A DNA stretch of 64,000 nucleotides from Patescibacteria group bacterium (GCA_038064975.1 JBBTRX010000007.1:59026-123025), one strand, 5' to 3'; positions 6,587-64,000 are shown, counted from the stretch's first letter. The notes: generated from the sequence alone by a model not told the origin. Made by a program: numbers and translations.

Positions 6587-6749
6587 AAATAGATGTGAGA
6601 GAATTCGAGGACGCTTGTCGTTTCTACCAGCATAACTCTTATCTATCGCTTTCCATATTTTTAATATGCACAGTTATGAATATTCGTTTCACGTCGGAAA
6701 AATATGTATAATAAAACATATGAGTAACCACACTAATCAAGGAGGAAAT

Positions 6750-6896: not shown

Positions 6897-6902
6897 CTCT
6901 CC

Positions 6903-7445
6903 CTATCTCATCTGCTTCTCTTTACTATCCACTACGCTAATTATTGTTGATGGTTTTCCGTTCAGTTCTCCCTTATCAATAATGAATGATACATTTGCGC
7001 CAAAGTATTTTTTTGCTTCTTCAATAGTTTTCGCCGGCGGCTCACCCTCCAGGTTTGCGCTTGGAGCAACGATGGGGCCCGTTTCCCGCAGGAATTCAAT
7101 AAGCCATTTTTGTTTAGGTAAACGGAAAGCGATACTTCCGGTTCCCCTATGCAGATATGAAAAAGATTTGCTCTCGCACGGTACAACGATACTTACCGGT
7201 CCAGGCCAATATTTTTTAAAAATTTCTTTGGTTACTGCATCAGGTTTAATATTGAACTTTTCTATATCACTCTCTGTACTGATTAATACAATGAGAGGCT
7301 TACGCGAATCTCTTTTCTTAAGCTGATAGATCCGTTCAACTGCCGAAGGTGAAAACGCAGAACAAACCAGACCGTAGATCGTGTCGGTCGGGATAACTCC
7401 AATTTCTCCATTTTTAATCAGTTCAACCTCTTTGCTGTATTCCAT
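6903..7445 (-). CDS. tsaC: L-threonylcarbamoyladenylate synthase (YrdC/Sua5 family)
   Basis: GVIPTDTIYGL and SANLEGEPP motifs; about 180 aa YrdC-type length. Confidence 0.8.
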   Translation of the reverse strand: MEYSKEVELIKNGEIGVIPTDTIYGLVCSAFSPSAVERIYQLKKRDSRKPLIVLISTESDIEKFNIKPDAVTKEIFKKYWPGPVSIVVPCESKSFSYLHRGTGSIAFRLPKQKWLIEFLRETGPIVAPSANLEGEPPAKTIEEAKKYFGANVSFIIDKGELNGKPSTIISVVDSKEKQMR

Positions 7446-21435: not shown

Positions 21436-21697
21436 CATCTATTACTCTCTCCCCGAGGCAACAACCCGCGACTAAAACTGACCACGGCCTGGTATGTGGC
21501 ATGTGGAAAAGAGGAAAAAAGGATATCTAAAATAGCAGAATGGCCATAAGACGCGATAAAAAACTATTATCGCGCCGCCCCCGACATCCTCATGATTGCC
21601 ATAACCACATACTGAGAGATTCACGGCAACCCATAGTACAAACAATATCCGCCCATATGGGCGGATATTGTTTGTAAAGAATTGTACAACCCTACGA

Positions 21698-45766: not shown

Positions 45767-46930
45767 TTATTTCTTTCGTTTTCTCAAGAATGCTGGGATA
45801 TCCCAAATGTCTTCCTCAGCTTTTTTGGCAGCTTCCTTTATAGACGGTTCTTCTACTTTCGGCTCTTCTCGATGAAACGCCTTAGGTGGCTCATCTACCG
45901 TAAAGAGCGTTGGAGATGGTGCAATATCCATACTGCGGGAAAAATTCGCATTAAATCCGGTCGCGATAAGGGTAATCTTAATCTGTCCGGGTTTTAACTT
46001 CCTATCATGATAAGCACCGAAGATGATTCTCGCGCTCGCGTCTACCGATGCCGCTATCGTTTTTGCCACGTCATTAATTTCAGTCATCCTCAAATCCTTA
46101 CTTCCAGCTATTCCAAAAAGAACTCCTCGTGCGCCTTCTATGGAAACTTCCAAGAGCGGAGAATTCACCACTTGGCTTACAGCATTCACCGCGCGATCAG
46201 GGCCGCTCCCAATACCAATGCCGACGAGCGCTGAGCCTGCATCTTGCATGATAGCTCGAACGTCCGCGAAGTCCACGTTGATAATACCCGGCATCGCGAT
46301 AAGTTCAGAGATGCCTTGTACCGCGGATCTGAGTACATCATCAATATATTCAAATGCCTTAAGAAGCGGGGTATCCTTGCGGATGATACTAAAGATCCTG
46401 TCGTTTGGGACAACAATCAGCGTATCTACTTTTTCTTTAAGCCGCATAAGGGCACTTTCTGCAATCTTCATGCGCTGAGACCCTTCAAACCCAAAAGGCT
46501 TTGTTACTACACCAACAGTGAGCGCTCCTGCCTCTCTGGCCGCTTCAGCGACAAGCGGACTTACACCAGAGCCCGTTCCTCCGCCAAGCCCTGCGGTAAT
46601 AAAAACAAGATCTGCGCCTTTCAAGGCTTCAACAATTTCTGATTTATTTTCTTCCGCCGCCTGCCTACCAATCTCCGGATTCATACCGGTACCCAAGCCA
46701 CGCGTTAAATTTCTTCCGATATAAATTTTCTTTCTCGCCTCGCAATAATCCAAATCCTGCGCATCAGTATTAATGGCGATAAACTCAAGGCCTCGAATAT
46801 TGATACTTTGAACCATCCGCGATACGGCATTTCCGCCTCCACCGCCAACTCCCACTACTTTGATTTTTGGGGTATAAATCTGCGAAGTAGTAGTTAATTC
46901 TCGTTTAGTTTTTTTCATATGAGAACCCAT
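45767..46930 (-). CDS. ftsZ: Cell division protein FtsZ
   Basis: GGGTGSG tubulin signature. VVTKPFGFEG. Confidence 0.9.
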   Translation of the reverse strand: MGSHMKKTKRELTTTSQIYTPKIKVVGVGGGGGNAVSRMVQSINIRGLEFIAINTDAQDLDYCEARKKIYIGRNLTRGLGTGMNPEIGRQAAEENKSEIVEALKGADLVFITAGLGGGTGSGVSPLVAEAAREAGALTVGVVTKPFGFEGSQRMKIAESALMRLKEKVDTLIVVPNDRIFSIIRKDTPLLKAFEYIDDVLRSAVQGISELIAMPGIINVDFADVRAIMQDAGSALVGIGIGSGPDRAVNAVSQVVNSPLLEVSIEGARGVLFGIAGSKDLRMTEINDVAKTIAASVDASARIIFGAYHDRKLKPGQIKITLIATGFNANFSRSMDIAPSPTLFTVDEPPKAFHREEPKVEEPSIKEAAKKAEEDIWDIPAFLRKRKK

Positions 46931-47200
46931 CTTAACAATCCCGCTCTATCGCGTTGCAACTCGTTTTTTGACGAGCGCAAGGCGCGACGAGAAGAGTGGA
47001 GTTTACGCTCCCTCGACGAGAAGCAACGAAGCGATTCGACAAAAACGAGCGCAACCCTTCGGGATAGGGCCAATATACCCACCCCCTGCGTCGCTCCGCC
47101 TCGGAGTAGTTTTTCACTACACCTTCGTTGTCGCTCCTTGTGATGTACCTATATTGGCTCATATCGCGTTAAGTGGGGTTGTTAAGATGAGTTCTACTAG
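46921..47200. repeat. GC-rich ftsA-ftsZ intergenic element bounded by about 29-bp imperfect inverted repeats
   Basis: Left arm CATCTTAACAATCCCGCTCTATCGCG versus the reverse complement of the right arm CATCTTAACAACCCCACTTAACGCG (24/29 identical). Internal short repeats ACGAGCGCAA x2, GTCGCTCC x2. Confidence 0.4.
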
Positions 47201-48435
47201 GGAGCAAAGTATTTCCAGGCTTTTTTGAGCAATGATGTTGCTCCCCCTAAAGGAATATTGAATTTCTTTGATTCCCCTATACTATCATATCCCATAAGCA
47301 ACAAGCCAAGACCCGCGGTAAGCTCCGGATCATCCAGCATTGTAGCGTCTTCAGAGTTCCTAATATCATATGAAGCAAGGTCCGGATTCGCTATTTGAGC
47401 CGCAAGGTGCAGTTCTTGTTTTGCGAGTTCTATAATTGAAGGGATTTTAGCTCCCCCTCCAGTAAGCACTACTCCACCCGGGAGTTGTCCTGCTTTTTTA
47501 AGATAGCCAAGTTCGTTGTTTACAAACTTAAAAATTTCCGCGAGGCGCGCTTCGATAATTTCAGCGATGTACCGTTTAGTAATATGCCCCTTTGCTCCGG
47601 GATCAATTTTTGAAAGCTCAATGTTTTCCCGCGCAGGAATCTCTTTCGCTATAGCAGATCCGTACGAAAGTTTCACCCGCTCCGCGAAATGCACCGGGAT
47701 TTTGAGCCCGATCGCAAGATCGTTAGTAATATTAGACGCTCCCACGGGAAAAACGGCGGCATGGACAATTTTACCCTCTTCATAAACACACATGCTCGTT
47801 TTTCCATAACCGATATCCACGAGCACTACACCGAGCTCGCGCTGACTTTTTGTGAGTATTGCACGAGCATCTGCGAGCGGCTGGAGAATAAGTTTTCTAA
47901 CTTCTCCCCCTAACATCTCAACGCACTTCATTAAATTTTTTATATTGGGAGCAAACGCATCAATGATTAAACTATTCACCTCCAAGCGATTGCCAACCAT
48001 CTCAACGGGGTCGCGAATATCACGAACGCCGTCAACGATATATTCTCTAACTATGGAATGGAGCACGAGGCGGTTTGCCGGAATATTAATTGCCTGGGCA
48101 CTCTGCATGGCCCGTTTAACGTCGTCTTCATTGATCTCATAATCTGCACGGGAAACAGCGACGATACCGATAGAAGATTGGACTTTAATATCGCTTGATC
48201 CGATACCGAGAAAAATCTCGGCAAGAGCGTCTTTGCTGAACTTTTTTACCTCAGCGAGTACGGGAGAAAGGGACTGCGTAAGCTCTGCGATATCATGCAC
48301 GACGCCCTTTCTAATACCCTGCGAGGGATGTTTCATAACACGAAGGACGGTGATGCCACCGTCTCGCCTTATTTCTCCAATAACTGTTTTAATAGTGGAC
48401 GATCCAACGTCCAATCCTACAATAAACCGAGGCAT
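47197..48435 (-). CDS. ftsA: Cell division protein FtsA
   Basis: Actin-like ATPase. LDVGSSTIKTVIGE phosphate-1 motif. Followed by ftsZ. Confidence 0.85.
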   Translation of the reverse strand: MPRFIVGLDVGSSTIKTVIGEIRRDGGITVLRVMKHPSQGIRKGVVHDIAELTQSLSPVLAEVKKFSKDALAEIFLGIGSSDIKVQSSIGIVAVSRADYEINEDDVKRAMQSAQAINIPANRLVLHSIVREYIVDGVRDIRDPVEMVGNRLEVNSLIIDAFAPNIKNLMKCVEMLGGEVRKLILQPLADARAILTKSQRELGVVLVDIGYGKTSMCVYEEGKIVHAAVFPVGASNITNDLAIGLKIPVHFAERVKLSYGSAIAKEIPARENIELSKIDPGAKGHITKRYIAEIIEARLAEIFKFVNNELGYLKKAGQLPGGVVLTGGGAKIPSIIELAKQELHLAAQIANPDLASYDIRNSEDATMLDDPELTAGLGLLLMGYDSIGESKKFNIPLGGATSLLKKAWKYFAP

Positions 48436-52042: not shown

Positions 52043-52573
52043 ATGGGAATTAAACTCATAATAAGCATTGGAAATCCGGGAAAAGAGTACGAACGGTCGT
52101 ATCATAACGCGGGCCACATTGCACTCCGCATTTTGAAAGAAAAAGTCGGTTCAACGGTCCCCCTCCTTGCCTCTTCAGAATTTATGAACCGATCTGGGTC
52201 TTTTGTAGGGCGAGAAGCGCGGCAGAAGGGTGTAAAAGCACAACAAATTCTCATCCTCCACGACGATAGCGACCTTCCCCTAGGAACCGCAAAGCTTGAT
52301 TTTAATCGGGGTGCCGGAGGGCATAATGGAGTCGCAGATATTATTGCGACGCTTCAAACCCAAGAATTTTATCGCCTTCGCATCGGAGTACGCAAAAAAA
52401 CATGGTTCTGGTCCAGACGCAAAAAAGCGGGAGAATTTGTTCTAAAACAGATGCCAAAGAAAGACGAGGAGATGTTGCGAGATAGTATTGAATCCAATAT
52501 AGAAAAAATCACTCGTCTTCTTTCGCAGTCAAACTCACCCCAAACGAATACGTTCCATCAGGATTCGCTTTAA
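52043..52573 (+). CDS. pth: Peptidyl-tRNA hydrolase
   Basis: LIISIGNPGKEYERSYHNAGH N-terminal signature. Confidence 0.85.
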   Translation: MGIKLIISIGNPGKEYERSYHNAGHIALRILKEKVGSTVPLLASSEFMNRSGSFVGREARQKGVKAQQILILHDDSDLPLGTAKLDFNRGAGGHNGVADIIATLQTQEFYRLRIGVRKKTWFWSRRKKAGEFVLKQMPKKDEEMLRDSIESNIEKITRLLSQSNSPQTNTFHQDSL

Positions 52574-54017
52574 TATTAGCTAAAGGAAGAAGAACCTCGC
52601 TGAAAATACCGCTTTTCTCCAATCGTTCTTTGAACGCAATAACCTCTGGTTCGCTTTTTGTAAATCCGTTTATGAGTAAATCTTTTCCCTCCACGGAAAC
52701 TCTAATCAAGGCCACTCCCTGACTAAGAGTAAGAATATTATTCAAAGACTCCGAAACAGATACCGCTTCATTATTTGCATTTTCAATTCGCGAAGCAAAA
52801 GAATTAAATTCTTTTGCTTCTGCTTGAAGTCGTACTATTTCAGCTTTATCCGCAGGATTTCCATCTAGTATATTTTTTTTAACATCGTTTAATTTTTGAA
52901 TAATAAAAGCATCCCCAATGCCAAAAAATAATGTGAGGATCGCAAATGTAGCAACAGCAACGCTTCTCCATGCGTGAATAAATGCAATAACACGCGTTTC
53001 TTCATAACGCTCACGGACAGAGTGATCAGCAAGACTAAGGAAGGAATCCTCATTGCGAGGCATAGTGCCTCGCAAAGCAGACCCCAAGAGAGGAAGCCAT
53101 GCATGAGGAATGCCCTGAAACGCTGGGAGTGTAAGGGCTTCTACAGGAACACCAAACGTATCTTTGAGTCCATCAATTATTTTCCCCGTCATCTCATCAG
53201 CGGCAACGAAGAGGGAATCTACGGGTTTACCCCATCTGCTTTGATAGAAATTCAAAACCTTTTGAGCTTCGCTTGCAATGAACGCTTGAAAATCGTTTTG
53301 AGAAAGATCTTTTCCTCCATACTCTTCGCGGAGCGTGAGCCAACTATGGGATTGGCTAAAATAGAGATTTCCCTTTTGAGCAATGAGAAACAGTACCCCT
53401 TCTCCCGAAACATGAATAATACATAATGATTGCCGAGGGTCGTCTTTAGGAAGCCCTTCACTTATTGAGCGAGCAAGAGCAAGACCGGGAAACTCAACTG
53501 CCGTCGCAATAAACCCTGCTTCTTCCGCGGTTTTTGTATATGCATCAACAAATTCTCGTTCTGCGACCGCTCCTAAAAGATCTACTTGTGCGGTTCCTAA
53601 AAATCGCTCACCTATCTTCTGCCAACCGGAATATACGTGAGAGAAATCTGTCGGAGAGAGCATTTGCAGATTCAGTAGCGCCGACTCTTCCATCTTTGAT
53701 TCTTCTAAAAACGGCATGGAGAATGGCTGAGTGTATACAATTTCTTCCGGAAGGAGAAGAATAATATTTTGCATTGCACGTCCGCCTCCAATTTGGCTAC
53801 GGAATTTTTTTAATGCCGCGACAAGCTTAGCAGAATCCTTAACCTTCCCCTTCTCAATAATCCCTGGAGGCAAGCGGAGTGCGGAAGTAGTCGGTTTTTT
53901 AACGCCCGGTTGCATTAAGAGAAACCGAATGCCTGCATCAGAAAAAGCCAATCCTCCGATTTCCGGGGCTGGGTTAATCATTTTTTGTACTCTAGAAAGA
54001 AATAGATTACCTCTCAT
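52509..54017 (-). CDS. Type IV pilus assembly protein, fused PilM-like (actin-fold) and PilN-like (TM plus coiled coil) modules
   Basis: Cytoplasmic actin-like region, single TM around residues 335-360, periplasmic coiled coil. First gene of the pilus operon. Confidence 0.5.
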   Translation of the reverse strand: MRGNLFLSRVQKMINPAPEIGGLAFSDAGIRFLLMQPGVKKPTTSALRLPPGIIEKGKVKDSAKLVAALKKFRSQIGGGRAMQNIILLLPEEIVYTQPFSMPFLEESKMEESALLNLQMLSPTDFSHVYSGWQKIGERFLGTAQVDLLGAVAEREFVDAYTKTAEEAGFIATAVEFPGLALARSISEGLPKDDPRQSLCIIHVSGEGVLFLIAQKGNLYFSQSHSWLTLREEYGGKDLSQNDFQAFIASEAQKVLNFYQSRWGKPVDSLFVAADEMTGKIIDGLKDTFGVPVEALTLPAFQGIPHAWLPLLGSALRGTMPRNEDSFLSLADHSVRERYEETRVIAFIHAWRSVAVATFAILTLFFGIGDAFIIQKLNDVKKNILDGNPADKAEIVRLQAEAKEFNSFASRIENANNEAVSVSESLNNILTLSQGVALIRVSVEGKDLLINGFTKSEPEVIAFKERLEKSGIFSEVLLPLANIKANPDGTYSFGVSLTAKEDE

Positions 54018-54496
54018 AGCGATATTTCATAAATTGCAACCGGCCGAACTTCTCCCGTATGAGGGTCAACATCAAGCGTAGCACGCAAACGACGGCGTTT
54101 TGTAAGCGCTTGCCCATCAGAAACTATTTCTCTTTTACCAACGCTGATAGCGCACGATGGAGATCCATTGCATATTACCGTGTTATTGCATGAGGCATCA
54201 CTATCATCACAAATTTCAATCGTCGCCCCAGAAGGAATAGTATAAGGGTCATCGTCGCTATATTGATTACGAATGACTCGTAATATCGCATCCTGAATAC
54301 CAGACTCTGCATCCGCGTATGCCTGTGCTGAAAGCCGAAAACCATAATTTGTATTATTCGCAATGAATACAATAAACATGCCCACAAGCGCGATATCAAC
54401 AATGATCGCCCCAATAAGAAGGATTGCGCTCAACGACGCAACTCCCTGCTTGTCAGATTTGAGATTTAATATTTGATTTTTGATATTGAAACTCAT
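54014..54496 (-). CDS. Pilus-associated membrane-anchored protein (PilO/minor-pilin-like, hypothetical)
   Basis: Single N-terminal TM. Translationally coupled (4-nt overlaps) to both neighbours. Four Cys in the exodomain. Confidence 0.35.
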   Translation of the reverse strand: MSFNIKNQILNLKSDKQGVASLSAILLIGAIIVDIALVGMFIVFIANNTNYGFRLSAQAYADAESGIQDAILRVIRNQYSDDDPYTIPSGATIEICDDSDASCNNTVICNGSPSCAISVGKREIVSDGQALTKRRRLRATLDVDPHTGEVRPVAIYEISL

Positions 54497-55551
54497 TTAC
54501 TCCAATTAATAATAACATCTTCCACTATAGGACCTGCGGAGGGAGTGCAGGTTGGAATATTACATGGCGTGAAATTAAGCCGATATTTGAAATAACGAAT
54601 ATTAGAATGAGCAATAAGACTGGTTGTTGCATAAGGAGCGATAGCTCCCAAACCAATAGACTGAAAAGCCCATCCAAGCGTAGTACAATTCGGTGGTACA
54701 TCTCCCACATCAGCACAATCCGTTGCTATCTGAGCAGTAATTTGAGCAGGAGCGCTTGGTAATGCTCCGTGCCATACAAATGTATTTAGTTGTGATCCGC
54801 ATAATACGCCCGGCGCAAGATTGGGGCACGTATCAAAAACACTTGATTCTAAAATCGCTGTGGGCAGTGTAGGAGGAATAGGAGACCATGTCGTTTTTAC
54901 TTTATAGTCTACCGTCGCACAAGTATCTATTGGATTAGAACAATTAAAACTAATCCAACCTACAATATCGTTCCATGCCCAGCCACTAAACTCCCCTTCT
55001 GCTGGAGAAGAACTATCAACATTAATAACTACTTGATATGTTGGCGATACCGGACAATTCCACGACAACGTTCCGGGATTCCAAACCGACCCCCCGCTCG
55101 CATTCCCGCAAAAACTAATCCAGCCAATACTATCGTTCCATGCCCAACCTGCAAGATTTGAAATTCCTGTTATTGCATAGTTCGTAAAATCGTTTGAAAC
55201 GAAAAAATTTGATGTCCCACAGATATTTATAGTATTCGGATTTGCATTATCACAATTCAAAGCAATGAATCCAACCGAAGAGCTCGCATATCCACGAAGT
55301 TCAATGTCAGTCACTTCAACATTCGAATTATCTGTATATACAAAATCAATCCATCCAATCACATCATTCCACGCCCAATGATTTGGTTCTGCAATATCGA
55401 TGTTTGGAGTCGTCGGACCGATTCCAGCCATTACTTGTAAAGTAAAAAATCCTGTTATAAAAACAACAGCAAAGAACAAACCTACTATAATATTGATTCG
55501 TAATTTCATGTTATGGCTCAAGAATCTGTACCGCTCCTGGAGTCGTTTCAT
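54493..55551 (-). CDS. Secreted Cys-rich repeat protein with three W-A-W-N-D...GWI.F motifs (candidate pilus tip adhesin)
   Basis: N-terminal TM/signal. Repeats NHWAWNDVIGWIDF, AGWAWNDSIGWISF, SGWAWNDIVGWISF. 19 Cys. Confidence 0.4.
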   Translation of the reverse strand: MKRLQERYRFLSHNMKLRINIIVGLFFAVVFITGFFTLQVMAGIGPTTPNIDIAEPNHWAWNDVIGWIDFVYTDNSNVEVTDIELRGYASSSVGFIALNCDNANPNTINICGTSNFFVSNDFTNYAITGISNLAGWAWNDSIGWISFCGNASGGSVWNPGTLSWNCPVSPTYQVVINVDSSSPAEGEFSGWAWNDIVGWISFNCSNPIDTCATVDYKVKTTWSPIPPTLPTAILESSVFDTCPNLAPGVLCGSQLNTFVWHGALPSAPAQITAQIATDCADVGDVPPNCTTLGWAFQSIGLGAIAPYATTSLIAHSNIRYFKYRLNFTPCNIPTCTPSAGPIVEDVIINWSK

Positions 55552-56206
55552 GATCTATCTCATCCGACTCCGCCATATCATAAACTGAGATAGAGCTCGT
55601 TGCGGAATACGACACACTCACTCCATTCCCCCCACTCCAATCTGTCTGGCGCATCACCACATTATTATGCCTTGTGAGATATTTACTAAACTGCACCTGC
55701 CCTCCATCCGGCCATGAAACAGTTACGATAACGCGCTGTGTTGAAGGATCTTCGTTGAGAGAGTTGAACGTCGTCTCGATATTGTCCTGAGGGTCTCTTG
55801 ATACATTTTGTTTCTGAAAAAAACGCGTATATACAATACCATCGCTACCTGTTACCGATTCTGTCCCTGATCTCCATATAAATGGAGCCGTGGGGGCTGT
55901 TTTCCTCAAATAATAATCCTCATCTTCAGTTAGATTATAAAGACCCTGATTTAAGCCAGTCCCTTCACAAGGAGCGCTTACACAATACCACTTGGTTTGA
56001 GCATAGATCGTAAGACCCTCTAAAAGTTCCTGACCTAGAAATGTCGCGCTTTGGAGATATTTATTTTGCTGGCTAATACGAAGCGTTACGGTAAGCACAA
56101 GCACTGCGGACCCAATAATAATAATGCCAACCGTAATACCAATTAAGATCTCTATTAAAGATTGGCCTTTTCTGCTATTGAGCAAGCGTAATTGTTCCAT
56201 TAGCAC
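55511..56206 (-). CDS. Type IV minor pilin/pseudopilin
   Basis: Prepilin leader ...RKGQSLIEILIGITVG (Gly then Gln-Ser-Leu-Ile-Glu, Glu at +5). Confidence 0.65.
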   Translation of the reverse strand: MLMEQLRLLNSRKGQSLIEILIGITVGIIIIGSAVLVLTVTLRISQQNKYLQSATFLGQELLEGLTIYAQTKWYCVSAPCEGTGLNQGLYNLTEDEDYYLRKTAPTAPFIWRSGTESVTGSDGIVYTRFFQKQNVSRDPQDNIETTFNSLNEDPSTQRVIVTVSWPDGGQVQFSKYLTRHNNVVMRQTDWSGGNGVSVSYSATSSISVYDMAESDEIDHETTPGAVQILEP

Positions 56207-56687
56207 TTATAGTTATAGTTTTTGTTTCCGCTCCGGAAATGATACCAAGCACAACACTCTGGGGAGTACCACCAGGAGAACCTTTTAAGGTAGAAAATGC
56301 TATATCCTGAATACTTCTATCGACTAACCCTACCCAATAAATATCATTCTTTAATTTATATACTTCTCGAACCAGAGCAGCAGGAGCAGCAGATCCAGGA
56401 GGAGGATATATAGTGCTCGTAAGCGTAGAGCTTGAGGCATATACAAGCTTCATTATGTCGCCAGTTACGAGTTTCTCAAGACGCACACCCCACATACTAC
56501 CGTTTTCTTGAGTGATAGAACGTTGCTGTGCGTCACGGAGAAACGACTCAACTCGTTTTGCATCAGAATCAAGATTCTGAACTACTCTCTGACGAATTAC
56601 ACCGAATGTGGTAAATCCAAAAATAACACTACCAATTGCAATCGTTATCATAAGTTCTATGAGCGTAAATCCTCGGTTATTCTTCAT
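56175..56687 (-). CDS. Type IV pilin-like protein
   Basis: MKNNRGFTLIELMITIAIG: canonical class III signal / N-methylation motif. Confidence 0.75.
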   Translation of the reverse strand: MKNNRGFTLIELMITIAIGSVIFGFTTFGVIRQRVVQNLDSDAKRVESFLRDAQQRSITQENGSMWGVRLEKLVTGDIMKLVYASSSTLTSTIYPPPGSAAPAALVREVYKLKNDIYWVGLVDRSIQDIAFSTLKGSPGGTPQSVVLGIISGAETKTITISANGTITLAQ

Positions 56688-56816
56688 AGTAGAAAGAAGT
56701 AAGTATAAAGCATAAAGTGAACAGAAAAAATCATTAATGAATTAAAGTCTATTGTTTTTTTAATTTTGCATTGTCACTTTCATCTTTGAGATTTTATTTT
56801 TGAGATTTGATTTTCT

Positions 56817-58013
56817 TTAGAACTGCCCTACAAGCTGATAAATAGGGACGATAATAGAGAGCGCGATCATCGCAACGACAAGACCGATAACTATAAGAAG
56901 TGCTGGCTCAATAAAAGCCACGAGAGTCTTCACTGATTCGTCAATTTCTTTTTCATAGAAATCGCTCAACGTTTGCAAAATATCATCAAGATGCCCCGCT
57001 TTCTCTGAAATGGCGATGAGGTTAGTCACAATAAGTGGGAGTGTCGTTTCTTTCTTAAACGCCTCTCCCAGAGTAATACCACGAGATACTCCTTCGCGAG
57101 CAACGCGCTGGAGGGACTTCTCTAACCGATCATCGCCCACTGCACTCGCCGTTGTTTCTAGCGCCTCAAGAATGGGGAGTCCTGATTTCAAGAGCGCAGA
57201 AAGTGTGCCTGCAAATCGCTGAAGAGCCAGCTTTTGAGTAACATTTTTAACAAGAGGGGTTTTACGCAGAAACATTCGAAAAACCCGTTTCCCTGTATTT
57301 GTTCTAAAAAAGAAAAATCCGATAGTGATCAACGCCACGCCAGATCCTAGAAAAATCCAAACATATTTCCCAACAAAAAGACCGACTCCAAAAACGATGC
57401 GCGAGAAGATAGGCGGTTCTACACCCCCACCAGAAAAGACATCCGCAATTTTTGGCAACGCAAATGTAACTAAAAAAGTAAGAATGCCGATTGCCATAAC
57501 AACAAGTATGACGGGGTAAATAAAAGCGGCTTTCAGTTTACCCTGCAACTCACCCTCTTTTTCCAGAGATTTATTTAAATCATCCAGAGTTCTATCAAGA
57601 CCGCCGGAGGATTCTCCCGCCTTCAAGAGACTTACGAATACCGGAGAGAAATACTGCGGATATTGTGCGAAGGTTGCATGGAACGGTTTTCCCCGTTCAA
57701 GACCGCTCCTGATTTCAAGCAAGAGATTTTTAACTCCGGGCTTATTAAAATCTTCAATCAAAATATCAATTGCTTTAAAAAGATCAGTACCTACTCGCAA
57801 CATCAATCCAAGATACTTAGTAAGAAATATTTTGTCCGTGAGAGTTATTTTTCCACCACTCTTCTTGTTACCTATCGCCTCAAACGTATGAACCGAAATA
57901 GGACGAAGACCTTTACTCCCTAGAAATTGAAGCACCTGACTTTGATTGTCGGCGTCAATACTTCCTTCCACTATTTTTCCGTCCGGTTGATATGCACTGT
58001 AGCGAAATCGCAT
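56817..58013 (-). CDS. pilC: Type IV pilus platform protein PilC (GspF family)
   Basis: Two T2SSF repeats, three TM helices; about 400 aa. Confidence 0.8.
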   Translation of the reverse strand: MRFRYSAYQPDGKIVEGSIDADNQSQVLQFLGSKGLRPISVHTFEAIGNKKSGGKITLTDKIFLTKYLGLMLRVGTDLFKAIDILIEDFNKPGVKNLLLEIRSGLERGKPFHATFAQYPQYFSPVFVSLLKAGESSGGLDRTLDDLNKSLEKEGELQGKLKAAFIYPVILVVMAIGILTFLVTFALPKIADVFSGGGVEPPIFSRIVFGVGLFVGKYVWIFLGSGVALITIGFFFFRTNTGKRVFRMFLRKTPLVKNVTQKLALQRFAGTLSALLKSGLPILEALETTASAVGDDRLEKSLQRVAREGVSRGITLGEAFKKETTLPLIVTNLIAISEKAGHLDDILQTLSDFYEKEIDESVKTLVAFIEPALLIVIGLVVAMIALSIIVPIYQLVGQF

Positions 58014-58066
58014 GCATTAATTAACTATAAACAATGGATAATGGACAATAAACGATGATGGATAAT

Positions 58067-58429
58067 CTACAGACTCTTTGCTCTTTTTTTTAATCCTCCC
58101 ATCTGCCTTGAGACGCTGTTCAGTTGTTCTACTATTCCAGCAAATTCCTGTTCGGTTATAAGTTTATTATAACGGAAAATATCAACTCCAGCTAATGTTT
58201 CATAGAGAGACCCTTGAGCTATATCAATAAAACGACAAAATTCTTTATGTGAGCTTCTACCGCTTCCTTCGGCAATATTTAATGTTATGGAAAAAGCAGA
58301 TCTAATTAGTTGATTGCCAAGTATAAAACGATATTCTTGGGGCAATTCTTTTACTATTCGCAATATTACAAGAGATAATTCTCGCGATTCTTGATATACC
58401 GGCCATTTAAGAAAGCCGAACTTCTCCAT
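58067..58429 (-). CDS. Four-helix-bundle protein (TIGR02436, '23S rRNA intervening-sequence protein' family)
   Basis: LGNQLIRSAFSITLNIAEGSGRSSHKEFCRFIDIAQGSLYETL matches the family core (NIAEG.GR.S..EF..F..IA.GSL.E). Confidence 0.75.
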   Translation of the reverse strand: MEKFGFLKWPVYQESRELSLVILRIVKELPQEYRFILGNQLIRSAFSITLNIAEGSGRSSHKEFCRFIDIAQGSLYETLAGVDIFRYNKLITEQEFAGIVEQLNSVSRQMGGLKKRAKSL

Positions 58430-58464
58430 TGTTCATTATTTATTATCTATTGTTTATTATTTTT

Positions 58465-60183
58465 CTATTCTCGAATAACTCGAAGCACTTCTTCCAGAGT
58501 CGTCATGCCGCGCTCTGCTTTTTTTAGTCCGTCTTCAAACATTGAAATATATCCTGATGCTCGGGCAATTTCTTTCATCTTATCAAGGGTAAATTGCGTT
58601 CCAACGATGTATTTACGCACATCTTCAGTAACATTCAGAATTTCATGAATACCCATACGGCCGCGGTATCCGGAATGATTACATGAATTACATCCTTGCC
58701 CTCTAAACATTGTTTTTGGAATGATATAGGACACATCAAGCTTTAATTCCTTTAACTGCCTCTTTAATGATTCTTCAATATCGGGCGATATTTTATAGGA
58801 CGTAATGCACGACATGCAAATTCTGCGTACAAGACGCTGTGCCATGATCATATTCAAAACTGCCGCAACCAAAAACGGAGCGATGTGTAAGTCAATTAAA
58901 CGCGGGATGGTCGTCGGAGCGTCGTTTGTGTGGAGCGTTGAAAGCACTAAGTGTCCGGTAAGCGCCGAGTGTACGGAGATTTCTGCTGTTTCTTCATCTC
59001 TAATTTCTCCCACCATGATGACGTTTGGATCTTGGCGAAGAATTGCGCGAAGTCCATTAGCAAAAGTAATACCTGCTTGCACATTAACTTGAGTCTGATT
59101 TACATATTTCATGTAATATTCAACCGGGTCTTCAACAGTAACAATATTTACCTCAGGTCGGTTCAGTGCATTTAAAATAGAATAAAGCGTAGTCGTTTTT
59201 CCTGAGCCTGTCGGGCCGGTTACCAAAATCATGCCGAAGGTTTTTTTCGCATTGTCTCGAATGAGTGCAATATTTTCTTGCGAAATACCAAGCTCTTCAA
59301 AAGACATTGGGCGTTCGCTTGCCGATAGCAAGCGCATTTCTACCTTTTCCCCATAAAATGTCGGCATTACAGAAACACGAAGGTCGATCATGTCGTGTCC
59401 CACCCGATGGCGAAACCGGCCGTCCTGCGGCTTATAGTGTTCGTCTAATTTCATTCCAGAGAGTAATTTAAAACGTGCTGCGATAGCCGCGTGCACTTCC
59501 CGGGGCATGCGCATGACTTCACGCAAGATGCCGTCAATACGAAAACGAACAAGAATATCGTTTTCTAAAACCTCCAAATGCACGTCAGAGGCTCGAACCG
59601 CCATGGCGTATGAAACCAGATTGTCTGTAAGCTGAACAACAGGAAGGTCGGTAGCCGCTTCTTGTGCCTCCTTCTCACCAATACGCGCGCGCATTGATGC
59701 CTGAATGTTATCGTCAATTGTTTTTCTAAAATTCTCTGTAATCGTTTCCGCGTAAAATGTCAGTCCTCGGTTAAAATCGTCTTGTGTAGCAAGAAATGGT
59801 TTTATTTTTGATTTGAAGCGATTCGTTAAAAATTCAATCGCCACCAAATCATTCGGATCCAGCATCGCGACTTGAAGCGCACCATCCTGTTCCCTTCCGA
59901 AAAGAATTATTCCTTTTTGGCGAGCAACATCTTCAGGGAGTAATTTTAAAACATTATCATCAATTTTCCTTCCTTTTTCAAAGTTTGCAAGTTCAATACC
60001 ATAAAACCGAGCCGCAATGCCATAGTAATACTCTTCGGTAATTGCGTTCTGTTCCAAGAGAATAGAAGCAACTCCACGATTCATACGGCGAGAATCTTGT
60101 AATGCAACCTGAAATTTCTCTTCCGTAACAAGATTGTCTTGTAAAAGCAGTTTTTTAAATTCTTGTTCAGGAATCTGTAACAT
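58465..60183 (-). CDS. pilB: Type IV pilus assembly ATPase PilB (GspE family)
   Basis: N-terminal GSPII_E_N domain. Walker A GPTGSGKTTTLYS. Asp box, Walker B. Tetracysteine CMSC...CNSC. Confidence 0.9.
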   Translation of the reverse strand: MLQIPEQEFKKLLLQDNLVTEEKFQVALQDSRRMNRGVASILLEQNAITEEYYYGIAARFYGIELANFEKGRKIDDNVLKLLPEDVARQKGIILFGREQDGALQVAMLDPNDLVAIEFLTNRFKSKIKPFLATQDDFNRGLTFYAETITENFRKTIDDNIQASMRARIGEKEAQEAATDLPVVQLTDNLVSYAMAVRASDVHLEVLENDILVRFRIDGILREVMRMPREVHAAIAARFKLLSGMKLDEHYKPQDGRFRHRVGHDMIDLRVSVMPTFYGEKVEMRLLSASERPMSFEELGISQENIALIRDNAKKTFGMILVTGPTGSGKTTTLYSILNALNRPEVNIVTVEDPVEYYMKYVNQTQVNVQAGITFANGLRAILRQDPNVIMVGEIRDEETAEISVHSALTGHLVLSTLHTNDAPTTIPRLIDLHIAPFLVAAVLNMIMAQRLVRRICMSCITSYKISPDIEESLKRQLKELKLDVSYIIPKTMFRGQGCNSCNHSGYRGRMGIHEILNVTEDVRKYIVGTQFTLDKMKEIARASGYISMFEDGLKKAERGMTTLEEVLRVIRE

Positions 60184-60207
60184 ATCTTAAATATCAAATC
60201 TAATATC

Positions 60208-60576
60208 TCAAATCTTCCCTTTCCCTCTCATAGTTATGATACTTGATGCTAAAATTTTTGCTATCTCTACGGTTTCCTTTAATAATTCTTCCGACTCCTT
60301 ATTATCGCATTTTTGAGCGTCTTTTATAAGATGAATCCAGAATTCTGACTCATTAGCTGATTTTAAAGCATGATTATAAAAATTGATGTAATCTTTCTTA
60401 GAACTGGCTGACTTAGCTTCAAAAATATTCGCCGCCACTGAAGTACCACTACGCAATAATTGATTAGTGAGTACTCCTGATGAGGAATCTTTTCTTATTT
60501 TTTCAACGAATATAACGATATTGAGAGCATATGTATACAATCTTTTATAAAAATCATCTTTACTAAATTCTGACAT
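60208..60576 (-). CDS. Four-helix-bundle protein (TIGR02436 family), second copy
   Basis: LTNQLLRSGTSVAANIFEAKSASSKKDYINFYNHALKSANESEFWI has the same family core. Divergent paralog of 58067..58429. Confidence 0.7.
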   Translation of the reverse strand: MSEFSKDDFYKRLYTYALNIVIFVEKIRKDSSSGVLTNQLLRSGTSVAANIFEAKSASSKKDYINFYNHALKSANESEFWIHLIKDAQKCDNKESEELLKETVEIAKILASSIITMRGKGKI

Positions 60577-60634
60577 AAAAGATCATATTTTGAATTAAGC
60601 TGTAGATTTGAGATTTAAGATCCGAGATTTGCTA

Positions 60635-61234
60635 TTAGAACCTAAAACTCGCCCACCATCCTTGATTGCCCGCCCATAAAGCAACTAAAAGAGTAGTGAT
60701 TATCGCAGAAGGCATCCAGAAGTAGTAGAGCGGTAATCGTTCGTTCTTTTTTACAAGAAGCGCAGAACTAATAGCGGCAAGGAGAAGAACTAAAACTATA
60801 TAGAAAAGAAAAGCAGGATATCCGGTTATGAGAATACCAAGCGCAATAATATAAAGCTCGTCGTGTTCAAAATGGACTTGTCCGCGCTTTTTATCTAAAT
60901 ACGCCGAAACCCAAAAGAGAAGCAATGCAACGATGAATGAGACGAGGTACGTATTCCAAAAATGGAATCGGGCGTAGCTGAAAAAGTACTTCAAACCATC
61001 CACCGTACCGATCGTATATGAGAGTGGACCGCTTTGAAATGCCTGATATTGGAAATAAGATAGTATTCCTGCATAGCTAAAAAGAAGTAGAGCAGTTAAC
61101 CAAAAAATTGGTTTAATAGTTTTAAGTAAAAGCTCACGTTTTTGAAACTGTAAGAAAAAAACAATGCTCGGTATTACAATAGTGGAAACAGGAATAATAT
61201 AAGGCATCACATTCATATAGTTAAATAATATCAC
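60635..61234 (-). CDS. Polytopic membrane protein in the pilus operon (function unknown)
   Basis: Six or seven TM helices. No recognisable A24 prepilin-peptidase Asp motifs. Confidence 0.35.
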   Translation of the reverse strand: MILFNYMNVMPYIIPVSTIVIPSIVFFLQFQKRELLLKTIKPIFWLTALLLFSYAGILSYFQYQAFQSGPLSYTIGTVDGLKYFFSYARFHFWNTYLVSFIVALLLFWVSAYLDKKRGQVHFEHDELYIIALGILITGYPAFLFYIVLVLLLAAISSALLVKKNERLPLYYFWMPSAIITTLLVALWAGNQGWWASFRF

Positions 61235-61303
61235 ATTTCATAAGTGAAGGAACAAAAAAACAACCCAGCAAAGCCGGATTGTTTTTTTGTTAGAAATCAA
61301 CGA

Positions 61304-61873
61304 TTAGAGATTTAAACCTGGATCGGTTCCAATTTCATACCAGCAGGTTGCATCAACGAATGTACCAGTGCAAGTATTGTCATCTCCTCCATCGTTTTGC
61401 ATTAAGGCACGGTGTTTTTCAGATTCAAGACGAGCATTCAATTCAAACGTTTTTGCCGAATTATTACCAGCATAGGCAAAGTAATAGTTACCAGTATTTG
61501 TTGGATCAATAGGAAGTGTGGAAAGAGTAGATCCTCCAGATGTTCCGTTAAGATCTACAGCAAGCCATCCTGATCCACCAACCGTTCGTAAAACGTTAGC
61601 TAGTGGTGTTGTGCATGCACCGCCGCTAAATCCACTCACAATACCCAGGGTACAAAAAGGACCTGGTGTAAAAGTAACTGTTGTTGAAGCAGTTGCGAGT
61701 AAAAGCCCAACCGCTGACTGCACCGAACCTAAATCAGAGATTCTTTGCGTATCTCGAGATTCTTGCAAAATTTGCGCTGGGTTCAAAACCAAAACGACAG
61801 TTGTCGCGAGAATTGCAAGAATACCAATAACGATAAGAAGCTCAATAAGAGTAAAACCTTTCTTTGCTATCAT
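61304..61873 (-). CDS. Type IV major pilin (PilA-like)
   Basis: MIAKKGFTLIELLIVIGILAILA prepilin motif. Gly/Thr-rich globular domain with two Cys pairs. Confidence 0.8.
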   Translation of the reverse strand: MIAKKGFTLIELLIVIGILAILATTVVLVLNPAQILQESRDTQRISDLGSVQSAVGLLLATASTTVTFTPGPFCTLGIVSGFSGGACTTPLANVLRTVGGSGWLAVDLNGTSGGSTLSTLPIDPTNTGNYYFAYAGNNSAKTFELNARLESEKHRALMQNDGGDDNTCTGTFVDATCWYEIGTDPGLNL

Positions 61874-62161
61874 TTTTTTAATTATGTATTAAATATATTC
61901 GACTGAATAATCACTTATTTTTCATTGTATCGACCAGCTGGTTGTCTCTAACGCTACCTTACTAGTATACAGAATTCTGGCTGTTTCGGTAGTAAAAGAG
62001 CTGTGGATAATATATCGCTCGCATTCTTTTCAAAAAGTTATAAGAGCTGCTCGTACACTCTTAAAAGAGCTATAAGAATGACCTTTTTAAAGAGTGTACT
62101 CGCTTAGATTACGATTAGTTTTGAAAAAAGAATACTCGCTTCTAGTGACGTAAGTTGTTAG

Positions 62162-62539
62162 TTATTTTTTAATGTAACTCCCCACCTTATTAGCAAGATC
62201 GTCTATGGAAATACGGGCTTTTACAAAATAATCAACAACTCCCAATTCTCTCCCTCGTTCCATATCGCTTTCTTGGCCTAAATTGGAAATGACAACGACA
62301 GGAATATTTACTTTATTTTGGAGTTGCGGATCTGCTTTTAATTCTTCCAATACTTCAAAACCTGATTTTCCGGGAAGAATAAGGTCTAACAAAATGATAT
62401 CCGGAGTATTATTTCGCAACGCTTCAATTGCTTCATTGCCGTCATGCGCAACTATAATTTCATATCCGTCTTTTTCAAGACGGTTTTTCAGCAATGATGA
62501 AAGAAATTTGTCGTCCTCTACAAGAAGTACTTTAGCCAT
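62162..62539 (-). CDS. Single-domain response regulator (CheY/PilH-like) heading the pilus operon
   Basis: KVLLVEDDKFL...LLDLILPGKSGFEV...VISNLG. Confidence 0.75.
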   Translation of the reverse strand: MAKVLLVEDDKFLSSLLKNRLEKDGYEIIVAHDGNEAIEALRNNTPDIILLDLILPGKSGFEVLEELKADPQLQNKVNIPVVVISNLGQESDMERGRELGVVDYFVKARISIDDLANKVGSYIKK

Positions 62540-62880: not shown

Positions 62881-63165
62881 TTACCTAACTATGAGTGCTT
62901 GCCTTACAGTTGCCCCAATCTTACGCGGTCCGACAAATGCCGAACTGACGCATCGTGACTTTAAGGCTCCACGACGAACACCTTCAAATGAAAATGAATC
63001 GACACCGACTATTCTCTTTAAAAAAGAAGAATAATCAAAGTTTAATTGATCCACGAGCAGCTTCCGCTACCCGTGCCTTGTTACGACTTAGCCCTTGTCA
63101 CCGAACCTACCCTAATCCAGCAAGCTGAACTTTAGGTATTCCCGGCTTCCTTGACTTGACGGGCG

Positions 63166-63700
63166 AATATTTTCTCAAAAACTGAGAATGAATGTTCCCA
63201 CTGCACAGACGGATTTCCCGTATGCAGCGAGCTCAATGCATCGTTTGCTTTAATGTGAGCAAGCTTTGTAAGCCTGAGTCGGTAAGATGTTCCCCTTCTT
63301 TGATTGCATCCATAATTTCGCAGAAAACTTTGAAATCATGCCTCTTAGATGGAAAACGTAACGGATATTTCTTGAAAAACGGAATAATAATGTTTTCCAA
63401 GTCTTTCCGATTAGCGACTTCAAACCGGTAGCAATGCTGGTGATTTTTTCTACTATCTTTCTGGAAATATACATTTCCACACTGGAAAAAATCTTTTACA
63501 GCATCAAGGACTGTCTTGTCTTTTTCTACCAGCTTGATATAGAACCGTGGTTCTATTCTTGCTCGCCTGATTCGTTCCGTAGATTCATTGATATTGCGAA
63601 CATACGCAGTAAAGCTTCCTTCGCCATCAACTAATCCAACGATATAATCAGGATTAAACATTGTATTGAGTGAGGGCCTTCTTCCGACCTTATATCGGAA
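63166..63700 (-). mobile_element. Intron-like insertion (probable group I intron) in 16S near E. coli position ~1395; 5' boundary uncertain
   Basis: Canonical 16S sequence resumes at CGCCCGUCA (plus 63165 downward). The insertion contains a complete LAGLIDADG ORF. Confidence 0.5.
63233..63661 (-). CDS. LAGLIDADG homing endonuclease (single-motif, I-CreI-like size)
   Basis: N-terminal YIVGLVDGEGSF LAGLIDADG motif; 142 aa. Confidence 0.75.
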   Translation of the reverse strand: MFNPDYIVGLVDGEGSFTAYVRNINESTERIRRARIEPRFYIKLVEKDKTVLDAVKDFFQCGNVYFQKDSRKNHQHCYRFEVANRKDLENIIIPFFKKYPLRFPSKRHDFKVFCEIMDAIKEGEHLTDSGLQSLLTLKQTMH

Positions 63701-64000
63701 TACTATGCCTCAGCTGACTTCTGACGCTGCGTTAGTTTTTATGATACCACGGCATCTTGCCATGGACAGCCATCAGATCTCCACAGGTCACGTAATATAC
63801 TATTCCAAACATCCGAGACGAACCTTTTCCCGTGATCTTCCTTATCCTCACCGCCCACTGATAAGTCGATCGATTCTCCGCGTGTTGCGGATACGTCTTG
63901 GCTGTTTTTTGCCGACAGATCCTCCATCTCGCCCCTTCACAGAGGCGGACTATCTTTGGCTACGCTCCGACTAGACTTCATCGGAGGAGTGGATTCAAAC

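Follow-up and report, generated by a model that had tools for sequence, protein, structure and literature searches.

The window, as the whole 64,000-nucleotide stretch analysed here is called, most probably carries a lineage-typical CPR (Paceibacteria-type) type IV pilus (T4P) operon that houses two selfish TIGR02436 cassettes of the intervening-sequence (IVS) type, whose four-helix-bundle (4HB) genes are not parts of the pilus. The host is an ultra-small groundwater bacterium of the Patescibacteria (CPR). The sequence belongs to a Hainich groundwater contig of 381,697 bp, and its nearest relatives are Patescibacteria/Paceibacteria MAGs. The operon runs on the minus strand from 62539 to 52509 and encodes REC, the major pilin, TMx, a first 4HB protein (fhbA), PilB, a second 4HB protein (fhbB), and PilC, followed by two minor pilins, a W-repeat protein, a small anchored protein, and a PilM-PilN fusion, an order and a set of coordinates that an earlier, sequence-only reading of the window had given correctly. 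The genes and cassette arms are as follows.

62162..62539, minus strand: REC, CheY-like receiver protein, first gene of the cluster (PF00072, E=1.9e-22)
61304..61873, minus strand: major type IV pilin (N_methyl E=6.2e-07, passing the cut-off; class III signal MIAKKG/FTLIELL in the translation)
60635..61234, minus strand: TMx, conserved polytopic membrane protein (public gene call from the ATG at 61207, 190 aa)
60604..60631, minus strand: 5' (upstream) arm of the fhbA cassette, whose heptamer array starts 3 nt past the TMx stop (inverted repeats I2, I4, and I6; TRF period 7, 4.0 copies)
60208..60576, minus strand: fhbA, 4HB protein, 122 aa, pI 8.9 (TIGR02436 E=1.7e-25; PF05635 E=1.4e-21)
60184..60215, minus strand: downstream (3') arm of the fhbA cassette (I2 and I6; TRF period 7, 4.6 copies)
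58465..60183, minus strand: PilB assembly ATPase with an MshEN N-terminal domain (T2SSE E=5.5e-122)
58427..58462, minus strand: heptamer array forming the upstream arm of the fhbB cassette, which starts 2 nt past the pilB stop and includes the fhbB ATG (I1; TRF period 7, 4.0 copies)
58067..58429, minus strand: fhbB, 4HB protein, 120 aa, pI 9.4 (TIGR02436 E=8.4e-28; PF05635 E=1.6e-27)
58027..58057, minus strand: downstream arm of the fhbB cassette, separated by 13 nt from the pilC ATG (I1; TRF period 7)
56817..58013, minus strand: PilC platform protein (T2SSF E=4.9e-53; GspF/PilC NCBIfam models also match)
56175..56687, minus strand: minor pilin 1, MKNNRG/FTLIELM (N_methyl E=1.6e-09, passing the cut-off; TIGR02532 match)
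55511..56206, minus strand: minor pilin 2, ...SRKG/QSLIEIL (N_methyl E=0.0027, 17.7 bits against a cut-off of 21.2)
54493..55551, minus strand: W-repeat protein, anchored at its N terminus (W-A-W-N-D-x-[IV]-G-W-I-[SD]-F present three times in the translation)
54014..54496, minus strand: small anchored protein with a pilin-like N terminus lacking Glu5
52509..54017, minus strand: PilM-PilN fusion of GspL-like architecture, 502 aa (PilM_2 E=2e-08, residues 48-241; PilN E=8e-07, residues 431-496)

The type IV pilus core is present in the form of PilB, PilC, class III prepilins (G/FTLIEL motifs), and PilM plus PilN. Profile searches upheld the T2SSE, T2SSF, PilM_2/PilN, REC, and TIGR02436 assignments of the sequence-only reading; its N_methyl assignments stood for the major pilin and minor pilin 1 and failed to reach the cut-off for minor pilin 2, the gene of which is kept in relatives and encodes a PilV-like N terminus (E=9e-4). 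PilB matches TIGR02538 with an E value of 5e-154 and 514 bits, under the model cut-off of 675.65 bits. The proposed PilMN fusion is borne out by PilM_2 and PilN domains on a single protein and is kept in relatives, with open frames of 500 to 525 codons in the six that have the complete gene. The small anchored protein is also kept in relatives, the position of the W-repeat gene is kept in seven of eight (L010 has no match), and Pfam searches with these two proteins gave no match. REC sits 5' of the pilin gene in loci L004, L005, L008, and L012 as well. Translational coupling, likewise proposed from the sequence, shows in two 4-nt overlaps: pilMN shares 54014-54017 with the small gene, which in turn shares 54493-54496 with the W-repeat gene. 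Longer overlaps occur at 55511-55551 and 56175-56206.

The co-localization of PilB, PilC, PilM/PilN, and pilins, the absence of the PilQ secretin, and the Gram-positive-like envelope agree with CPR T4P loci described previously (PMC6744442), including those of Saccharibacteria (PMC12206443). PilD and PilT have been reported to be widespread in CPR (PMC6744442). Neither PilD (Peptidase_A24) nor PilT, nor a second T2SSE ATPase or a secretin, was found among the window ORFs scanned; the sequence-only reading had noted the lack of a recognizable prepilin peptidase, of pilT, and of a secretin. The locus also differs from other CPR T4P loci in the fusion of PilM with PilN and in the lineage-specific polytopic TMx, which stands where the canonical PilD often does. 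TMx was compared with the GxGD peptidases of the Peptidase A24 family (FlaK, PDB 3S0X); it has neither the GxGD motif nor the conserved Asp pair, and it matches no Pfam family. No Asp is conserved in the TMx family, and E116 and E117 are its only near-invariant acidic positions; the family of 83 members gave no Pfam A24 match at E<=1 among the 25 of 66 families listed, and hhalign against Escherichia coli GspO gave a probability of 0.2%. As a separate observation, TMx has a putative FlaK-like helical fold without GxGD, and a Foldseek search returned no match.

Both 4HB genes belong to the TIGR02436/PF05635 family. fhbB and fhbA score 96.8 and 89.3 bits with TIGR02436 (cut-off, 24) and 96.3 and 77.2 bits with PF05635 (cut-off, 33.8), covering model positions 1-108 and 2-107 of 109, respectively. 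They are divergent, as first read, with about 40% identity over 43 residues, and both contain the RxxxSxxxNxxE core (fhbB, IRSAFSITLNIAE; fhbA, LRSGTSVAANIFE). The leading Gly of the longer motif GxxRxxxSxxxNxxE (Zhang et al. 2013) lies five residues before the Arg in fhbB rather than three, and fhbA has Thr at that position. fhbB matches PDB 2GSC (E=3.2e-10) and 2RLD (E=5e-05), and a profile of the fhbA clade (alignment A1) matches 2RLD with an E value of 1.7e-23; these solved 4HB relatives have five chains per entry, and XCC0516 is a homopentameric toroid (PMC4990558). fhbA has 1718 homologues at E<1e-5, and the 120 of them listed show 57 to 70% identity and come from sources including several CPR phyla and one Woesearchaeota archaeon.

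The 4HB proteins share a homologous four-helix-bundle fold and basic charge with bAvd, the accessory variability determinant of diversity-generating retroelements (DGRs). fhbB weakly matches bAvd PF22296 (E=0.0024) and DGR Avd NF033474 (E=0.001), and PF05635 is the commonest family near DGR reverse transcriptases (PMC10053308), which raises the possibility that the two genes encode Avd-type accessory proteins of a DGR that diversifies a pilus or adhesin gene of the operon. This is highly improbable and is effectively refuted for the window: the Avd scores of fhbB are far under the cut-offs (18.8 versus 40 bits for PF22296 and 19.3 versus 80 bits for NF033474), no reverse transcriptase occurs among the window ORFs scanned, and a direct-repeat scan of 57900-60800 revealed no template/variable repeat pair.

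Each 4HB ORF lies in a cassette (436 and 448 nt) that ends in terminal inverted repeats of 27 to 31 nt made of tandem heptamers, all four arms being period-7 tandem arrays by TRF. The fhbB inverted repeat (I1) joins 58027-58057 with 58427-58457 (31 nt, 81% complementary), and that of fhbA joins 60189-60215 with 60604-60630 (27 nt, 81%) around a core (I6) of 19 nt and 95%. The fhbA downstream arm overlaps the fhbA stop codon, and its last base directly precedes the pilB ATG. These are the top-ranked inverted repeats of the region, they exactly bracket each 4HB ORF, and they rank second and fourth of 34 in the whole window; the sequence-only reading had missed them. The terminal arms are paired in the MFE and centroid folds of both cassettes; the energies of the whole-cassette stems are not significant (z of -0.95 and -1.35), and an Rfam scan of 57900-60700 gave no match. 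Enclosing terminal inverted repeats recur in 15 of 17 related cassettes. The flank duplex reaches z<-2 in 13 of the 17 cassettes of the fhbB set, and two of the other four have inverted repeats of 37 to 42 nt lying farther out. In the fhbA-clade sample of 74 genes, in which both window genes are counted, z<-2 was obtained for 29, versus 5 of 86 neighbouring control genes. Arms pair far more stably with their cognate partner (median, -40.4 kcal/mol) than with non-cognate ones (-22.8 kcal/mol; p=6e-6), and in 8 of 15 cases no arm pairs better than the cognate one. The stems are about equally stable for the sense and antisense strands, so these data accommodate an RNA-level as well as a DNA-level role of the arms.

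The inverted repeats could instead be the DNA ends of a MITE-like transposon with a passenger ORF, the transposase being encoded elsewhere and RNA structure being irrelevant. The similar duplex energies of the two strands agree with this explanation, as does the conservation of the arms across many fhbA-clade loci (upstream arm AAAATCAAAAATCAAA-ATG; downstream arm ...TTGTCATTTTGATTTTTGATATTTACATTTTGAAT), a sequence pattern that may also fit a protein recognizing DNA ends. Moreover, IS200-like Y1 transposases lie beside 2 of 60 cassettes, and the older literature weighed a transposition origin for IVSs (PMC4990558). However, no target-site duplication was found at the window cassettes or in the comparison of filled with empty sites, and the arms differ widely between subclades, yet each matches its own partner. 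The same architecture acts as an RNA stem in rRNA IVSs, and the strong co-orientation of the cassettes with their neighbours (69 of 74, see below) is not expected of cut-and-paste DNA transposition in the absence of selection against the other orientation. A MITE-like origin is therefore considered unlikely. Mobility of the IVS-type cassettes is deduced from comparative patterns only, since no transposase, integrase, or target-site duplication came to light and no single population was seen to vary in the presence of a cassette.

These patterns are clearest in the related pilus loci. Eight relatives found via PilB, which constitute an unbiased sample (PilB identity of 57 to 71%), have operons that are gene-for-gene syntenic with that of the window. 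A 4HB gene occupies the pilB/pilC junction in two of the eight, L004 and L010, both fhbB homologues, and none of the six relatives in which the TMx/pilB junction is visible has a 4HB gene (fhbA) there; the uniform presence that the sequence-only reading had named as the mark of a conserved component is thus not seen. The empty pilB/pilC sites of L005 to L009 leave 3 to 23 nt from the PilB stop to the start of the PilC match, and filled and empty loci are interleaved in a neighbor-joining tree of PilB. The TMx/pilB junction of L003 holds a GxxExxY/PDDEXK_3 gene (TIGR04256/PF13366) within a 57-nt inverted repeat, and L012 carries a TIGR04256/PF13366 gene after pilC with a 43-nt inverted repeat. 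Hairpins without an ORF occupy the TMx/pilB junction in L010 (z=-5.0) and L005; inspection of the alignment by eye shows that the L005 hairpin arm agrees with the downstream arm of the fhbA clade at 18 of 21 positions.

The contexts of homologues elsewhere are very diverse. Among 80 metagenomic loci with fhbA relatives, 69 of 74 upstream neighbours (median gap, 32 nt) and 52 of 60 downstream neighbours (median gap, 60 nt) point in the same direction as the 4HB gene. On either side the neighbours represent more than 60 Pfam families, with S7/EF-G, PrgI, SecDF, enolase, and RuvB among them. The statement that the family is usually found inside 23S rRNA IVSs derives from the family name and does not describe this lineage, in which nearly all 4HB copies lie between protein genes; an rRNA gene adjoined the 4HB gene in none of the 16 loci checked.

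The sequence-only reading had left a choice between insertion and recruitment. In the latter case, the 4HB proteins, at least those of the fhbB type, would be accessory factors of the secretion-ATPase machinery that might regulate or chaperone PilB or PilC and would owe their retention in the operon to this role. fhbB homologues occur at the same site in L004, L010, L012, L099, L101, and L104, and the fhbB subclade occupies pilB/pilC in 7 of the 13 contexts sampled, in lineages with PilB identity as low as 55%; three further contexts belong to other T4P or T4SS operons, with members beside a PilT-like ATPase and within two T4SS operons. A 4HB gene pair also brackets PrgI in L016, and the ORFs are full-length, without disruption, and retain the RxxxSxxxNxxE core. 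Against this stand the six of eight unbiased relatives that lack a 4HB gene at pilB/pilC in an operon of otherwise identical gene order, the spread of the fhbA clade over more than 60 unrelated contexts, and the inverted-repeat/heptamer termini, which are features of elements rather than of operon genes. Members of the fhbB subclade also lie between Mur ligase and archease and between GAPDH and RpiB, nested among the pilus-sited copies on the 4HB tree, and the count of 7 in 13 partly reflects one old, vertically inherited insertion. Recruitment is accordingly improbable. Judged from sequence comparisons, the TIGR02436 genes are insertions, namely ORFs of IVS-type cassettes, and not pilus-machine parts, because inverted repeats flank them, other cargo occupies the same junction in L003, and homologues occur in very diverse contexts. 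The persistence of fhbB at pilB/pilC could reflect host benefit or target preference rather than pure selfishness, and the intact, strongly conserved ORFs indicate that the 4HB protein does something.

The nearest known counterparts of the cassettes are the 23S IVSs with S23p/4HB ORFs of Coxiella burnetii, Leptospira, and Xanthomonas type (PMC4990558). The Coxiella IVS measures 428 to 444 nt. Its terminal stem of 28 bp closes a loop that contains an S23p ORF, tandem heptamers precede this ORF, and RNase III excises the insert (PMC4990558). The window cassettes resemble it in size, in a stem of about 28 bp, in a PF05635 ORF forming the loop, in heptamers directly upstream, and in a start-codon region within or next to the stem. 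They differ in lying in spacers of a protein operon instead of helix 25 or 45 of 23S rRNA and in having intact, conserved ORFs, whereas the Coxiella ORF is decaying. 23S_rRNA_IVP genes have also been reported wedged among cas genes (Zhang et al. 2013, PMC3936711), one of them between cmr3 and cmr2. The same protein family, the RxxxSxxxNxxE core, and co-directionality within an operon are common to both cases. The part of that report dealing with these genes presents them as possible functional partners of Cas nucleases and does not describe flanking inverted repeats or empty sites; in the window, the flanks, empty sites, and alternative cargo point instead to an element.

The cassettes fill the TMx/pilB and pilB/pilC junctions in the orientation of the host genes. 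In the proposed mechanism, the polycistronic mRNA would include the cassette transcript. Pairing of the arms would extrude the insert as a stem-loop and bring the upstream stop beside the downstream start, which would limit the harm to the operon. By analogy with rRNA IVSs, for which RNase III excision has been demonstrated, RNase III probably cleaves the stem. The basic, Avd-related 4HB protein may serve the element, not PilB, and might do so as a nucleic acid-binding protein at the heptamer arms. The operon suggests that IVS-like hairpin-flanked cassettes colonize not only ribosomal RNA genes but also ordinary protein operons.

The window lies on a 381,697-bp contig from a 0.1-µm-filtered Hainich groundwater metagenome, and its relatives are Patescibacteria/Paceibacteria MAGs. 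The gene order proposed for its pilus operon by the sequence-only reading was confirmed by ORF listing and HMM scans.

Genes of the pilus operon in transcriptional order (REC, major pilin, PilB and PilC assigned by ORF listing and HMM scans)
62162-62539, minus strand, REC gene
61304-61873, minus strand, major pilin
60635-61234, minus strand, TMx, a polytopic membrane protein that could not be annotated
60208-60576, minus strand, fhbA, a four-helix-bundle (4HB) gene (TIGR02436 and PF05635)
58465-60183, minus strand, PilB
58067-58429, minus strand, fhbB, the second 4HB gene (TIGR02436 and PF05635)
56817-58013, minus strand, PilC
after PilC, minus strand, in this order: two minor pilins, W-repeat protein, small anchored protein
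52509-54017, minus strand, PilM-PilN fusion, the final gene of the operon

Both 4HB genes score above the curated TIGR02436 and PF05635 cut-offs over the full model length, which upholds the family assignment, and they share about 40% identity across 43 residues only. The translational coupling that had been claimed is seen as 4-nt overlaps linking the final three genes of the operon. As had also been claimed, the window ORFs scanned include no second T2SSE ATPase, A24 peptidase, or secretin, and no reverse transcriptase was found among them. For CPR bacteria, the pilus operon as such is unremarkable. What is notable is the presence of complete cassettes of the intervening sequence (IVS) type, with two alternative cargo genes, in mRNA operons instead of rRNA. 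Elsewhere in the operon, the W-repeat protein (54493-55551) carries the motif W-A-W-N-D-x-[IV]-G-W-I-[SD]-F three times, has numerous cysteines and no Pfam match, and keeps its position in 7 of the 8 relatives found through PilB; it is a candidate surface or adhesin component associated with the pilus.

Each 4HB gene is bracketed exactly by an inverted repeat. The fhbB repeat (58027-58057/58427-58457) has 31-nt arms with 81% complementarity, and the fhbA repeat (60189-60215/60604-60630) has 27-nt arms with 81% complementarity and a 19-nt core at 95%. No longer inverted repeats occur in the region, and these two rank 2 and 4 among 34 in a window-wide scan with arms up to 900 nt apart. All four arms are made up of period-7 tandem arrays. 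With edges 2 to 3 nt past the upstream stop codon and 0 to 13 nt short of the next start codon, the cassettes (436 and 448 nt) occupy the entire spacer. In RNA folds of both cassettes, the terminal arms are paired in the minimum-free-energy and centroid structures; whole-cassette folding energy is not significant against shuffles, which leaves the terminal stems as the one distinctive structure. Stem stability is about the same on the sense and antisense strands, with no clear asymmetry, so the arms could act at the DNA level. A candidate outward promoter in the fhbA downstream arm (9/12 consensus match at 60211-60184, abutting the pilB ATG) was dropped; promoter-like matches in the region numbered 23, compared with 26.5 in shuffles, showing no excess. 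The cassettes share their plan with the Coxiella burnetii 23S rRNA IVS (PMC4990558). [quoted passage not shown]

A PilB scan of species-representative genomes yielded eight related loci (L003 to L010) with 57 to 71% PilB identity. Gene order is the same in all of them, namely REC, pilin, TMx, pilB, pilC, minor pilin 1, minor pilin 2, W-repeat, small protein, and pilMN, followed, where the contigs reach, by pth, lepB, hisS, and HIT. An fhbB homolog occupies the pilB-pilC junction in only two of them (L004 and L010), and none has an fhbA counterpart between TMx and pilB. In five loci (L005 to L009), 3 to 23 nt separate the PilB stop from the start of the PilC match, and empty loci interleave with filled ones in the PilB neighbor-joining tree. 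Uniform presence of 4HB genes in the pilus operons, which would have marked them as conserved components, is thus not what the relatives show. An apparent strain-level presence/absence of the second 4HB gene, between a Wolfebacteria locus (L012) and three others (L013 to L015), was rejected as a gene-calling difference, as tblastn recovers the gene in L012.

The junctions of relatives also hold other inserts. A close relative (L003, 71% PilB identity) lacks any 4HB gene and has, between TMx and pilB, a 139-aa GxxExxY/PD-(D/E)XK gene (660-1079; PF13366, E = 5e-17; TIGR04256) flanked by a 57-nt inverted repeat. A GxxExxY/PD-(D/E)XK gene in the Wolfebacteria locus (6678-7073; TIGR04256, PF13366) lies 3' of pilC within 43-nt arms. 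These genes are a second cargo family of the same cassette architecture at pilus-operon junctions of relatives. In L010, the TMx-pilB junction holds a hairpin without an ORF (z = -5.0). A remnant in L005, also lacking an ORF, has a 3' half that agrees with the downstream arm of the fhbA clade in 18 of 21 positions, as counted by eye on an alignment. In the window, the ftsA-ftsZ spacer (46906-47211) is filled by the longest inverted repeat of all, with 40-nt arms that are 75% complementary and 226 nt apart. It encloses no ORF, and either an ORF-less insert of broadly similar type or a regulatory structure could account for it.

Similar arms flank many related cassettes. In all pilB-pilC cassettes examined (L004, L010, L012, L099, L101, and L104), they lie tightly against the stop of PilB and the start of PilC, and their heptamer units vary by locus (ACAAT, ACTTACA, AACCAAC, and GACCTAT types). 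In the fhbB set, flank-duplex z is below -2 in 13 of 17 cassettes, and two of the remaining four have 37- to 42-nt inverted repeats farther out from the ORF. Cognate arms in this set pair with a median of -40.4 kcal/mol, against -22.8 kcal/mol for non-cognate arms (p = 6e-6); in 8 of 15, the best pairing is the cognate one. In the fhbA-clade sample, z is below -2 in 29 of 74 genes (both window genes counted), versus 5 of 86 neighboring control genes. Arm sequences are themselves conserved within the fhbA clade. The cognate pairing ranks first there in 8 of 74, versus 2.8 expected, a weak effect explained by the homology of arms between loci; the test is informative solely in the more diverse fhbB set.

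The fhbA clade comprises 1718 matches at E < 1e-5, of which the best 120 show 57 to 70% identity; their source names include one Woesearchaeota archaeon besides several CPR phyla. Across 80 metagenomic loci retrieved with an fhbA-clade alignment, the upstream neighbor is co-directional in 69 of 74 (median gap, 32 nt) and the downstream neighbor in 52 of 60 (median gap, 60 nt), and the neighbors represent more than 60 Pfam families per side. Recurrent neighbors include S7 upstream (6 loci), EF-G-type proteins downstream (4 to 5), PrgI (5), and SecDF, and enolase, RuvB, and CTP synthase are among the singleton contexts. The S7-EF-G junction of the str operon is an apparent recurring site (6 S7 and 4 to 5 EF-G in about 74 loci). 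A T4SS-like operon in another locus (L016, 5001-6337) has a gene of the PrgI family flanked by two divergent 4HB cassettes, with 25-nt arms of 88% complementarity in each, mirroring the pair around pilB. The rRNA setting for which the family is usually noted was not seen in the 16 related loci checked, where no rRNA adjoins the 4HB gene. A viral-contig scan returned only 11 distant homologs (29 to 45% identity), with no sign of phages carrying this clade.

The fhbB clade is smaller and keeps more to one site, with 7 of its 13 contexts at pilB-pilC. The main rival explanation, that the fhbB type was recruited to partner secretion ATPases, draws on this site bias and retains a slight probability because of it; we regard it as quite improbable. 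The remaining contexts are REC-PilT-like ATPase (1), T4SS operons (2), Mur ligase-archease (2), and GAPDH-RpiB (1), and copies outside pilus operons nest among pilus-sited ones in the 4HB tree. Together, these contexts and the tree indicate that the clade has stayed at one junction across speciation and also turns up at new sites.

Selfish, IVS-type cassettes living inside operons fit these observations, and pilus accessory genes as the identity of the 4HB pair do not. The mobile-insertion reading proposed from sequence alone is supported and sharpened by the relatives, the arms, and the contexts. Neither a transposase nor a target-site duplication was found, nor any within-population polymorphism. 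In the proposed mechanism, the arms would pair within the polycistronic transcript, so that the stop codon upstream and the start codon downstream would come to lie side by side, and the stem would present an RNase III site. The 4HB proteins are basic (pI 8.9 for fhbA and 9.4 for fhbB) and may work for the element; the solved relatives 2GSC and 2RLD have five chains per entry. A wider proposal is that IVS cassettes with a 4HB or GxxExxY ORF form a general transcript-embedded class in any well-transcribed CPR operon, as RNase III-excised "operon introns" without ligation, whose heptamer-repeat arms extrude as stem-loops and which are excised from polycistronic mRNA as from rRNA; we consider it rather unlikely. 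Strict co-orientation and an Avd-related protein would fit RNA-mediated spread, with a reverse transcriptase acting in trans to copy the excised RNA. A DGR/Avd identity for the 4HB proteins was rejected, as the Avd model scores are far under cut-off and the window ORFs scanned yielded no reverse transcriptase.

Since the pilins carry canonical G|F/QxxxE cleavage sites, a prepilin peptidase is needed. PilD is reported to be widespread in CPR bacteria (PMC6744442) and may be located elsewhere on the contig; a regex search (G.GD.[KR]) of all fetched loci recovered no canonical A24 peptidase for building a profile. TMx has no Foldseek match and no Pfam or PDB sequence match, and its hhalign probability against E. 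coli GspO is 0.2%. Its family conserves N105, E116/E117, R157, W164, and P166, with no Asp pair and no GxGD motif. On these results, TMx counts as a conserved pilus-operon membrane protein and not as a demonstrated peptidase; its fold is possibly FlaK-like.

The sole rRNA of the window is a 16S rRNA 3' end (63052-63166, minus strand; model positions 1390-1520) directly upstream of the pilus operon; Rfam is blank around the cassettes, and an rRNA context for them was rejected. A terminator-like hairpin (62871-62852) separates the 16S rRNA from the REC gene. On the 5' side of the 16S 3' end is an insertion with a LAGLIDADG_1 ORF (63233-63661) and a match to group II intron D1-D4 (63675-63751), both on the minus strand, and the Wolfebacteria locus repeats the order LAGLIDADG ORF, REC, pilins. 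At the other end of the window, an ORF (1106-1450) whose HNH match is weak and below cut-off partly coincides with a group I intron (916-1184, minus strand, 59 bits). tRNA T-arm-like sequences lie beside this intron (414-442 and 872-900), and ARAGORN finds no tRNA in the window; positions 414-1450 may be an intron-split tRNA gene. A perfect, spacer-free 40-nt palindrome (two 20-nt arms, 100% complementary) is found at 21637-21676.

Questions about where bacterial rRNA IVSs come from, how they move, and what they do have stood since about 1990, with only a handful of rRNA sites for comparison. A search of the available library returned no description of this cassette architecture outside rRNA; the nearest precedent is 23S_rRNA_IVP genes between cas genes (PMC3936711). 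If such cassettes routinely sit between protein genes of CPR bacteria, they would offer many independent filled, empty, and decayed sites, two cargo families (4HB and GxxExxY/PD-(D/E)XK), and clear RNA-processing predictions, so that the mobility mechanism and the roles of the proteins would become testable. For annotation, operon-internal "four helix bundle protein" genes should not be taken for operon components. For pilus biology, the core operon consists of the conserved genes minus the 4HB genes and includes the widespread, uncharacterized TMx.
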